The notes beneath the pieces are model-generated. The model had not been told where the DNA came from. It did not search any database and saw nothing but the letters and a program-made list of their open reading frames with translations. The position numbers were made by a program, and so were the translations under genes. A DNA stretch of 9,558 nucleotides from a virus (taxonomy: Duplodnaviria > Heunggongvirae > Uroviricota > Caudoviricetes). The stretch lies in the IMG/VR virus record IMGVR_UViG_2541047429_000025; one strand, written 5' to 3'. The stretch's first letter is position 1. Each line of letters starts with the position of its first letter. Below are positions 5,062-6,153 of the stretch, piece after piece.

Positions 5062-6153
5062 ATGCGTGATTACGCAAAAGTTTCTCCGCGATTCTGGCTG
5101 GGAGAAACGGGGAGAGAACTTAGAAAGGCGGGTGCAGAAGCGCAAGTTGTTGCTTTTTACCTGATGACATCCCCTCACGCAAATATGCTGGGTTTGTATT
5201 ACCTGCCAGTTTTATACCTTGCTCATGAAACCGGGCTTGGTCTGGAAGGGGCTTCAAAGGGGCTTAAAAGGGCTGTTGAAGCTGGTTTTTGTAGCTATGA
5301 CCATGATGCAGAGATGGTCTGGGTCCATGAAATGGCAGCCTGGCAGGTTGGGGAAACGTTGAAGCCTGGCGATAACCGTTGTGCAGGTGTCAGGAATGAG
5401 TATGCATCATTACCTGAAAACGCTTTTCTGTCAGTGTTTTACGACAGATATAAAACGGATTTCCATCTGGATGTGAGGCGGAATAATAGCCGAAATTCGG
5501 TAAGGGGCTTCGAAGGGGCTTTTAAGGGGCTTCGAAGCCAAGAACAGGAACAGGAGCAGGAGAAAGAACAGGAACAGGACAAAAACACTATGGTTCATGG
5601 CAAAAAAAACACCACGAACCAGGCAGGGGATGTTCAGACCGTCAATCCTGGTCAGCCAGCAGGCACGACACCGGAAGCCGATTCGGGCGCTGTGCAGCAG
5701 GTGATGACCGCAGGGTCGGAGCAATCACACCAACTGCAGCAGCCTGAAGCCGATTCCGCCATTCAGCGGGAAGCCGATCGGGTAGTCCCGGAAAGCACCG
5801 GGCAGTCTGTGGGACGAGTGGATTATCCGGATGTGTTCGAACAGGTCTGGCGGGAATACCCGTTGCGTGCTGGGGCAAACCCGAAGAAATCCGCTTTCAG
5901 TGCCTGGAAGGCCAGATTGCGCGAGGGGGTGCCACCAGAGACCATGCTGGATGGTGTGAGGCGTTACGCGAGATACCTGGCGGCGACCGGGAAAGCGGGA
6001 ACGGAATTTGTTCAGCGAGCGACGACGTTTTTTGGGCCGGACCGGAATTTTGAAAACCCCTGGTTGCTCCCGGTAAGCGGCACGAACAACCAGCGTTGTG
6101 TGAATCATATTTCTGAACCGGATACCGAAATTCCGCCGGGATTCAGGGGGTGA
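5062..6153 (+). CDS. putative replication initiator / replisome organiser (363 aa from ATG 5062; 400 aa if ATG 4951)
   Basis: ORF-track ORF 4951..6153. ATG 5062 (MRDYAKVSPRFW...) has GAGG 4 nt upstream; ATG 4951 has none. Sits immediately upstream of the DnaC-like gene, and its central low-complexity linker (SQEQEQEQEKEQEQDK) is encoded by DNA repeats typical of an embedded origin. Functional call is by synteny and architecture, not by recognised homology. Confidence 0.65.
   Translation: MRDYAKVSPRFWLGETGRELRKAGAEAQVVAFYLMTSPHANMLGLYYLPVLYLAHETGLGLEGASKGLKRAVEAGFCSYDHDAEMVWVHEMAAWQVGETLKPGDNRCAGVRNEYASLPENAFLSVFYDRYKTDFHLDVRRNNSRNSVRGFEGAFKGLRSQEQEQEQEKEQEQDKNTMVHGKKNTTNQAGDVQTVNPGQPAGTTPEADSGAVQQVMTAGSEQSHQLQQPEADSAIQREADRVVPESTGQSVGRVDYPDVFEQVWREYPLRAGANPKKSAFSAWKARLREGVPPETMLDGVRRYARYLAATGKAGTEFVQRATTFFGPDRNFENPWLLPVSGTNNQRCVNHISEPDTEIPPGFRG
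5246..5278. repeat. 11-bp tandem repeats AAGGGGCTTnn (about 3 copies, third degenerate)
   Basis: aaggggcttca (5246..5256), aaggggcttaa (5257..5267), aagggctgttg (5268..5278); exact 11-bp period; inside the replication initiator coding sequence. Confidence 0.6.
5502..5539. repeat. 11-bp tandem repeats AAGGGGCTTnn (3.4 copies), iteron-like
   Basis: aaggggcttcg (5502..5512), aaggggctttt (5513..5523), aaggggcttcg (5524..5534), then aagcc; same unit as the 5246..5278 cluster. Confidence 0.65.
5542..5577. repeat. hexanucleotide microsatellite (GAACAG/GAGCAG)x6 encoding an EQ-repeat linker
   Basis: gaacag gaacag gagcag gagaaa gaacag gaacag, in frame (EQEQEQEKEQEQ), followed by an A-rich tract at 5581..5610. 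Confidence 0.7.

Follow-up and report, generated by a model that had tools for sequence, protein, structure and literature searches.

Phased 11-bp repeats within an initiator gene of a lambdoid prophage mark a putative replication origin

Short repeats inside a phage gene may be there for the protein that they encode or for the DNA itself, and this locus raises the question of whether such repeats are the binding sites of a replication origin. The stretch analyzed here (the window) is the whole 9,558-bp sequence of a Caudoviricetes virus, IMG/VR record IMGVR_UViG_2541047429_000025. The gene at issue (Table 1), whose 363-amino-acid product RefSeq calls a "hypothetical protein" or a "DNA-binding protein," carries the repeats; the region 4951-6153 that contains it is 100% identical to Escherichia coli O157:H7 chromosomes and belongs to the early part of a lambdoid (Rac/Qin-like) prophage. 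We have high confidence in a function of the repeats as a DNA element linked to the initiator that this gene encodes. We also consider it probable (at roughly 0.7) that the element is a replication origin bound by the N-terminal domain of the same protein, i.e., an origin placed inside its own initiator gene.

The initial annotation of this sequence had described two clusters of units phased at 11 bp, within the coding sequence directly upstream of a DnaC-like loader gene. Both statements hold, with small adjustments to the cluster ends. The 9-mer AAGGGGCTT is found five times as an exact copy in the window, always on the plus strand (at 5246, 5257, 5502, 5513, and 5524), against an expectation of 0.06, and none of 200 dinucleotide-preserving shuffles reached five copies; allowing one mismatch gives six window matches versus 2.48 expected. 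A repeat search returned start-to-start spacings of 256 and 11, and Tandem Repeats Finder reported a period of 11 at 5246-5272 (2.5 copies) and at 5502-5537 (3.3 copies), together with a GAACAG array of 6.3 copies at 5542-5579. The unit is quasi-palindromic, with CTTnnAAG frames and GGG or CCC between them. Several phased direct repeats lie inside the initiator open reading frame (ORF), and 6 bp separate its end from the DnaC/IstB-like gene. Cluster 1 overlaps codons 62 to 73, corresponding to helix 3 of a winged helix-turn-helix (wHTH) domain, and cluster 2 encodes residues 148 to 160 of a disordered linker. The units are read in all three frames in the window protein (EGASKGLKRA and RGFEGAFKGLRS); given the 11-bp period, a peptide repeated in one frame cannot be their source.

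Relatives of the gene were collected with its N-terminal 158 amino acids from phage genomes, from one genome per species (79 loci), and from IMG/VR (80 loci). The phage relatives (57 to 78% identity) were the Shigella phage 75/02 Stx, Klebsiella and Acinetobacter phages, Escherichia phage Fraca, and Ralstonia phage NK-7, and the whole set spans Enterobacterales, Acinetobacter, Burkholderiales, Xanthomonadales, Legionellales, and several phyla of metagenome-assembled genomes (about 60 bacterial species). Clusters were counted in 78 complete relatives (one per species plus five phages) as a phased pair of units with one mismatch allowed. Loss of the repeats from genes that keep the protein, the outcome that the initial annotation had named as evidence against an origin, is not what we found: the phased pair is kept at cluster 1 in 63 of the 78, at cluster 2 in 65, and at both in 61. 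The clusters stand at gene nucleotides ~185/196 and ~430-465, and the 311 kb of sequence flanking the gene in the relatives holds only one phased pair. Acinetobacter relatives have one more phased cluster, built of the same unit, at about -37/-26/-15 upstream of the initiator start codon (L005, 1960-2000; also L019, L031, L032, L036, and L050).

Conservation extends to synonymous sites. When 70 sequences from hosts with GC contents of 36 to 71% are aligned by codon, the codons under cluster 1 are almost fixed: GAA for E62 (61/61), GGG for G63 (60/63), GCT for A64 (59/65), AAG for K66 (59/59), GGG for G67 (60/66), and CTT for L68 (61/66). The entropy of codons 62 to 68 is 0 to 0.57 bit, versus 1.3 to 2.4 bit at other conserved four- to sixfold degenerate codons (with the exception of R2, 1.13 bit), and E62, G63, A64, K66, G67, and L68 have the six lowest normalized codon entropies among the conserved degenerate columns listed. 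Cluster 2 can also change orientation. It is in the minus orientation (AAGCCCCTT) in 46 of the 65 relatives that have it, mixed in 11, and plus in 8; the flip changes the peptide from GASKGL to APSKPL and leaves the 11-bp phase and the AAG/CTT arms as they were. The more divergent relatives L081 to L086 (21 to 34% identity) carry GAAACCCTTTC / AAGGGTTTC in place of the usual unit at the positions of both clusters, again with a short-period array after it. Considering the frozen synonymous sites, the orientation flips, and the concerted change of unit, selection acts on the DNA itself, and the repeats are conserved as DNA beyond coding needs and covary with the initiator.

The distribution of the gene among E. 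coli genomes is mosaic. Part of it matches 2,415 genomes, 470 of these at a coverage of at least 80%; the complete 363-amino-acid gene is present in 470 of 5,426 complete E. coli genomes. Most of the partial matches among those listed begin at ~5582 and cover the 3' half at ~92% identity, which implies that the N-terminal domain, the iterons, and the array were inherited as one block. In the locus L002, annotated as a "phage replisome organizer," a different N-terminal domain is joined to the C-terminal half common with the window gene. Homology of the two N-terminal domains was rejected, as hhalign detected no similarity between them (probability 0.1); that of L002 matches PF09681 weakly (E value of 0.13). 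L002 has repeats of its own, with four GTCACG units (2142-2178) and five more 270 bp downstream (2402-2448), phased at 10 to 11 bp, and after the second cluster comes a (ACAGATAAAGAT)x3.9 array (2449-2495) and then the common C-terminal half. Two unrelated DNA-binding modules with their own repeats, in one arrangement and with a common C-terminal module, are what would be expected of initiator/origin specificity modules. Genes with this C-terminal half are found in up to ~2,400 complete E. coli genomes.

Given its neighboring loader and helicase genes and the types of its C-terminal domain, the gene is the initiator, or replisome organizer, of an "initiator-helicase loader" module. Of 68 relatives, 23 have a DnaC/IstB-like loader as the next gene, 14 have a DnaB-type helicase, and 3 have lambda P, that is, at least 40 of the 68, and the C-terminal domains joined to this N-terminal domain among 70 relatives include Phg_2220_C of the SPP1 G38P family (4), DnaT (2), and DnaB_2 (1). 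The loader gene of the window matches NF009043 with an E value of 1.6e-153 and the DnaC equivalog model with one of 3.3e-89, which is under that model's cutoff. The initiator itself matches phrog_1701 along its whole length (E value of 8.9e-149, residues 1 to 363 versus profile positions 1 to 323 of 323), a family whose name, "DnaD-like helicase loader," is annotation only, and its C-terminal half falls in PHROGs "replication initiation protein" families (phrog_3729). Pfam gave no match of the whole protein at an E value of ≤0.01 and none of the N-terminal 160 amino acids at ≤10, and Pfam and NCBIfam together recovered no family apart from the DnaT tail; in particular, the N-terminal domain has no match to Phage_rep_O of the lambda O family, and neither PF09681 (Phage_rep_org_N) nor PF09524 (Phg_2220_C) matches the window protein.

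The N-terminal domain is modeled as a winged helix, followed by a disordered segment (residues 144 to 160, predicted local distance difference test score of <50). According to the model, codons 62 to 68, under cluster 1, encode the first half of helix 3, presumed from the topology to be the recognition helix. At the other end, the last 13 to 24 residues are nearly identical to the C terminus of E. coli DnaT (SEPDxxIPPGFRG), with SEPDTEIPPGFRG versus SEPDNHIPPGFRG. This tail would presumably contact a DnaB-DnaC type complex, and the similarity suggests that the phage protein may copy the host's handle for it. The protein thus combines a DNA-binding domain with a separate recruiting part, next to a loader or helicase gene.

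The DNA beside cluster 2 is a candidate for unwinding. Here, the initial annotation had placed a (GAACAG)n array and then an A-rich tract, in the layout of the lambda origin inside gene O. Both elements are present, although the tract is modest (38 to 40% GC), and the parallel with lambda is partial: cluster 2 does lie in the linker, but cluster 1 falls in the codons of wHTH helix 3, and the AT-rich region is weak and belongs to the C-terminal module. The suggestion that the EQ linker varies in length by slippage proved correct, since the copy number of the hexamer differs between near-identical E. coli prophages and that of the iterons does not, as is also seen in the Klebsiella/Citrobacter type. 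The segment 5540-5579 is 88% purine in the window. Among the 70 relatives, duplex stability has a local minimum at the array (mean z of +1.24, and +1.66 in high-GC hosts), whose top strand is 76 to 79% purine, and a second minimum is found 90 to 120 bp upstream of the cluster 2 end (z of +1.2), the two flanking cluster 2. The array that follows cluster 2 is not always (EQ)n (L065 to L068, L043, L055, L075, L076, and L067), and some array is usually present there whatever its sequence: (EK)n in Legionellales and some others, CACTGT/CACTAT in two alphaproteobacterial-type loci, and (KQ)n in one.

The A-rich tract has a GC content of ~30% at 5581-5610, 38% at 5576-5615, and 40% at 5550-5609, and its duplex stability is only ~1 standard deviation under the window mean. 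Because the mosaic junction is at ~5582, the tract is part of the C-terminal module and not of the iteron module. It forms the loop of an imperfect inverted repeat with arms GGTTCATGG (5592-5600) and CCACGAACC (5612-5620), and it opens with ACAAAAACACTAT, which also comes first in the AT-rich region of the lambda origin. More precisely, the 13-mer ACAAAA(G)ACACTAT, at 5579-5591 directly after the hexamer array, is also present in lambda (NC_001416, 39121-39134; L167, 622-635) directly after the last iteron, at the start of the AT-rich tract. This is a post hoc match in which the positions correspond, and it appeared in 0 of 200 shuffles. On the minus strand, the inverted repeat around the A8 run (5591-5621) resembles a terminator, a hairpin of 12 pairs (G-T included) followed by a T-run. 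It is the sole terminator-like hairpin in 4400-6300, a count not above chance. Variants of the inverted repeat are visible in related prophages, and many relatives (L003 to L086) have a short perfect hairpin of differing sequence within 60 nucleotides past the low-complexity array (for example, L015/L016/L018, L017, and L069, or the palindrome GTCCGATTCGAATCGGAC in L006). A conserved hairpin after the array was nevertheless rejected, the enrichment being only moderate: the lowest 10% of minimum free energy includes 19 of the 69 loci, these sequences are not independent, and the window stands at the 40th percentile.

A mechanism can be proposed from these elements. The N-terminal winged-helix domain would bind the 11-bp-phased AAGGGGCTT units, and the three units at 5502-5532 would nucleate an oligomeric initiator-DNA complex at the domain/linker boundary. 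The two to three units located 256 bp upstream (5246-5276) may serve as an auxiliary site, by raising the local protein concentration or by looping. The duplex would then open in an adjoining less stable stretch, either the (GAACAG)n array and A-rich tract (5542-5620) or the alternative candidate at 5394-5473, and the C-terminal domain with its DnaT-like tail would bring in the DnaC-like loader encoded by the neighboring gene and the host DnaB. A unit changed from AAGGGGCTT to AAGCCCCTT would still be bound under this model, and one changed to ACGTGTCAT would not. We infer the binding and the firing of the origin from the sequence, and likewise the parts of the scheme, namely, the N-terminal domain as the binder, the start of replication at this place, the place of opening, and the contact made by the tail. 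A bolder reading, which we regard as doubtful, is that the codons for the presumed recognition helix (62 to 68) contain the initiator's own binding site, which is repeated ~255 bp downstream to give a looped origin complex, in which case this would be the founding description of a widespread origin type (at least 60 species, including the Eru4 Shiga-toxin phages). If site and recognition helix do overlap, neither the site nor its reading head could change without the other, as suggested by the distant relatives that have another unit at both places.

Several points weigh against an origin at this place. The conservation of cluster 1 is partly protein-driven, because this cluster sits in the part of the gene that determines the fold. 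The candidate unwinding element is weak: 5540-5615 has 38 to 47% GC and a z of about +0.3 to +1.1, reaching only around +1, compared with 23% GC and a z of +2.8 for the lambda element on the same scale. Moreover, the A-rich tract is not conserved along with the iterons, because the C-terminal sequence differs among relatives. The third cluster in Acinetobacter hints that the sites could serve autoregulation also, or instead. The prophage is also possibly defective, in which case its origin may no longer fire in this host.

Among the other explanations, we consider it quite unlikely that the repeats are operators through which the winged-helix protein autoregulates or roadblocks transcription within or near its own gene, with the origin elsewhere. 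Plasmid Rep proteins of the winged-helix fold are commonly autorepressors as well, and a RepE-operator structure (2z9o) is among the weak Foldseek matches. The Acinetobacter cluster overlaps the ribosome-binding region, and the repeats have no strong AT-rich element adjoining, both of which favor this reading. However, no AAGGGGCTT copy lies upstream of the gene in the window, and a site at the domain/linker junction, with a purine-rich array next to it and loader/helicase genes downstream, has the arrangement of the lambda and SPP1 origins (PMC7466680, PMC5737612). The sites could, in any case, serve both autoregulation and an origin. It is very unlikely that the repeats and the array are recombination linkers for swapping the N- and C-terminal modules of initiators, with no role in initiation. 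The E. coli mosaic junction does fall exactly at the array end (~5582), and many unrelated C-terminal domains follow one and the same N-terminal module directly past the array, but units of 9 to 11 bp are too short for homologous exchange, and the strongest synonymous constraint is at cluster 1, 256 bp from the junction. The flips of orientation and concerted changes of unit point to recognition by a protein, not to homology with a partner, and an unrelated repeat type, the GTCACG of L002, has the identical layout.

Two further explanations remain. It is hardly credible that clusters 1 and 2 pair in mRNA or single-stranded DNA as a long-range stem controlling translation or priming: in most relatives, clusters 1 and 2 are reverse complements of each other, and even in the window 33-nucleotide arms are 73% complementary, yet the window and other Enterobacterales have direct repeats at both clusters, the arrays of 11 relatives are mixed, and no Rfam family matches here. 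Practically negligible, finally, is the probability that a repeated peptide (EGASKGL) and slippage gave rise to the repeats as a by-product, devoid of DNA function. The window peptides from the two clusters are alike (EGASKGL and EGAFKGL) and the hexamer array clearly slips, but a period of 11 bp is no whole number of codons, only the repeat codons have frozen synonymous sites, cluster 2 is inverted in most of the relatives that have it and then encodes APSKPL, and its residues are modeled as disordered. A -1 frameshift at the "slippery" A AAG GGG of cluster 1 was discarded as well; the relatives show T AAG GGG instead, and the inversion of cluster 2 is frequent. An origin bound by the N-terminal domain thus remains the reading that we prefer.

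Table 1. Features of the window, listed in prophage gene order (strand and coordinates where available)
Feature	Coordinates	Strand	Remarks
dicB and DicF			First in the prophage gene order of the window
relBE-type toxin-antitoxin pair			After dicB/DicF in gene order
CI-like HTH repressor	3130-3531	-	
YdaS/Cro-like gene	3640-3912		
YdaT-like gene	3896-4321		
ECs1072-family gene	4528-4983	-	
Initiator gene, 363 amino acids	5062-6153	+	ORF; RefSeq coding sequence with identical coordinates
N-terminal wHTH domain, residues 1-143	5062-5490	+	Presumed iteron binder; structure model
Iteron cluster 1	5246-5283	+	Exact AAGGGGCTT at 5246 and 5257; degenerate AAGGGCTGT at 5268-5276; in-phase AAGCT at 5279
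Least stable 80-bp stretch of the gene	5394-5473	.	Between both clusters; z of +1.59; alternative unwinding candidate
Iteron cluster 2	5502-5539	+	Exact AAGGGGCTT at 5502, 5513, and 5524; half unit AAGCC at 5535-5539
(GAACAG)x6.3 array	5542-5579	+	Encodes acidic (EQ)n linker; purine-rich top strand; length-variable; candidate easily opened stretch
A-rich tract with imperfect inverted repeat GGTTCATGG / CCACGAACC	5579-5621	+	A8 run at 5602-5609
C-terminal DnaT-like tail, residues 340-363	6079-6150	+	6aep/2ru8/9zbt, E values of 0.02-0.07; NF002770 DnaT, residues 340-363
DnaC/IstB-like AAA+ helicase loader gene	6160-6906	+	Partner of the initiator; PF01695, E value of 3.9e-19; phrog_50
DUF1627, DUF977, and DUF551 genes			Downstream of the loader gene

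The surroundings of the initiator gene are summarized in Table 1. The ECs1072-family gene is antisense, so that early transcription toward the right has either to pass through it or to start anew in 4984-5061; it lies between the ydaT-like gene and the initiator, where relatives have other small genes. A promoter and terminator scan of 4400-6300 gave counts at chance level, and GC skew across 1.5 kb was uninformative. The sole match to the DnaA box (TTWTNCACA) in the window, at 7725, is a chance count, and there is none near the repeats; a DnaA-dependent, oriC-like origin is not supported. A scan of the whole window against Rfam found no match within 5000-6200. Elsewhere, two matches reached gathering level, the DicF small RNA at 900-951 on the minus strand (76.9 bits) and the sok antitoxin RNA at 9047-9221 on the plus strand (113.3 bits), the latter implying a hok/sok-type locus near the window end.

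If correct, this reading assigns an origin and an initiator to a module that RefSeq calls a "hypothetical" or "DNA-binding" protein. The papers found on this type of module, the Eru4 of Shiga-toxin phages, call it uncharacterized; in the Stx-phage literature, the 75/02-type module is Eru4, with proteins of unknown function, and, by its account, nothing is known on the replication of Eru phages (PMC8951638; also PMC8044961). Being conserved and host-independent, the DNA motif could help to find origins in related prophages, and a fragment of ~400 bp and a domain of 160 amino acids are now defined for direct study. How replication is controlled in Shiga-toxin prophages and their relatives matters for the dosage of the toxin gene once they are induced. 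Annotated phage records (75/02 Stx and the other phage relatives) have no origin marked. A literature search on the motif string returned unrelated papers only, and one on the ECs1072-1074 tags nothing relevant. The literature on oriJ/ydaU contained no sequence-level description of that origin and calls ydaUVW (Rac) uncharacterized, and that on Bcep22-like phages gives the module order only.

Among the known systems, plasmid initiators of the winged-helix type (pSK41 RepA, 4pta, and F RepE) have no sequence similarity to the window protein, and their iterons are located outside the rep gene; the window protein, in addition, has a loader-recruiting C-terminal domain with the DnaT-like tail. DnaT hands the DnaB-DnaC complex to DNA, loading it during replication restart (PMC13220808), but the likeness is limited to the tail (17.8 bits versus a family cutoff of 201), and the remaining protein is unrelated. 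The lambda origin occupies the middle of gene O, with iterons followed by an AT-rich tract, and iteron number and linker length vary among lambda relatives (PMC7466680). As in lambda, the putative origin lies within the initiator gene, at ~40 to 47% of its length (the lambda iterons are at gene nucleotides 349-433 of 900, and here cluster 2 and the array are at 441-518 of 1,092), phased iterons precede a purine- or A-rich tract, the next gene is the one for the helicase loader, and the peptide encoded by the repeats is the linker between a DNA-binding N-terminal domain and a loader-recruiting C-terminal domain. Unlike in lambda, where iterons of 18 bp are ~20 to 24 bp apart, the units are 9 bp long at an 11-bp spacing, and they are grouped in two clusters separated by 256 bp, with cluster 1 inside the sequence that encodes the winged helix and with either orientation tolerated. 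The adjoining tract is also far richer in GC (38 to 47% versus 23%), the partner is a DnaC/IstB AAA+ loader and not lambda P, and the N-terminal domain has no Pfam match to the Phage_rep_O domain of O.

SPP1 oriL is also embedded in the gene of its organizer, gene 38, as AB boxes and a DNA unwinding element (PMC5737612), so that repeats and unwinding element share the organizer's own gene as they would here. G38P resembles the present case further in having no AAA+ domain, a separate loader and helicase, and two separate DNA regions that it binds (PMC5737612), and four relatives of the window N-terminal domain carry Phg_2220_C of the G38P family. The differences are the host group, the repeat sequence, and the geometry, the two SPP1 regions, oriL and oriR, being far apart in the genome versus 256 bp in one gene. 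Another counterpart is the Eru4 region of the Shigella phage 75/02 Stx, whose gene belongs to the same family (71% identity over the N-terminal domain) and has both clusters and the (GAACAG)n array; the annotation of the next gene is that of a DnaC-type replication protein. It differs in that cluster 2 is inverted. An origin inside an initiator gene is thus textbook for lambda and established for SPP1, and we found no origin description for this protein family. What this locus adds conceptually to the lambda/SPP1 paradigm is little, with one new point, a binding site that, according to the structure model, would overlap the codons of the presumed recognition helix.

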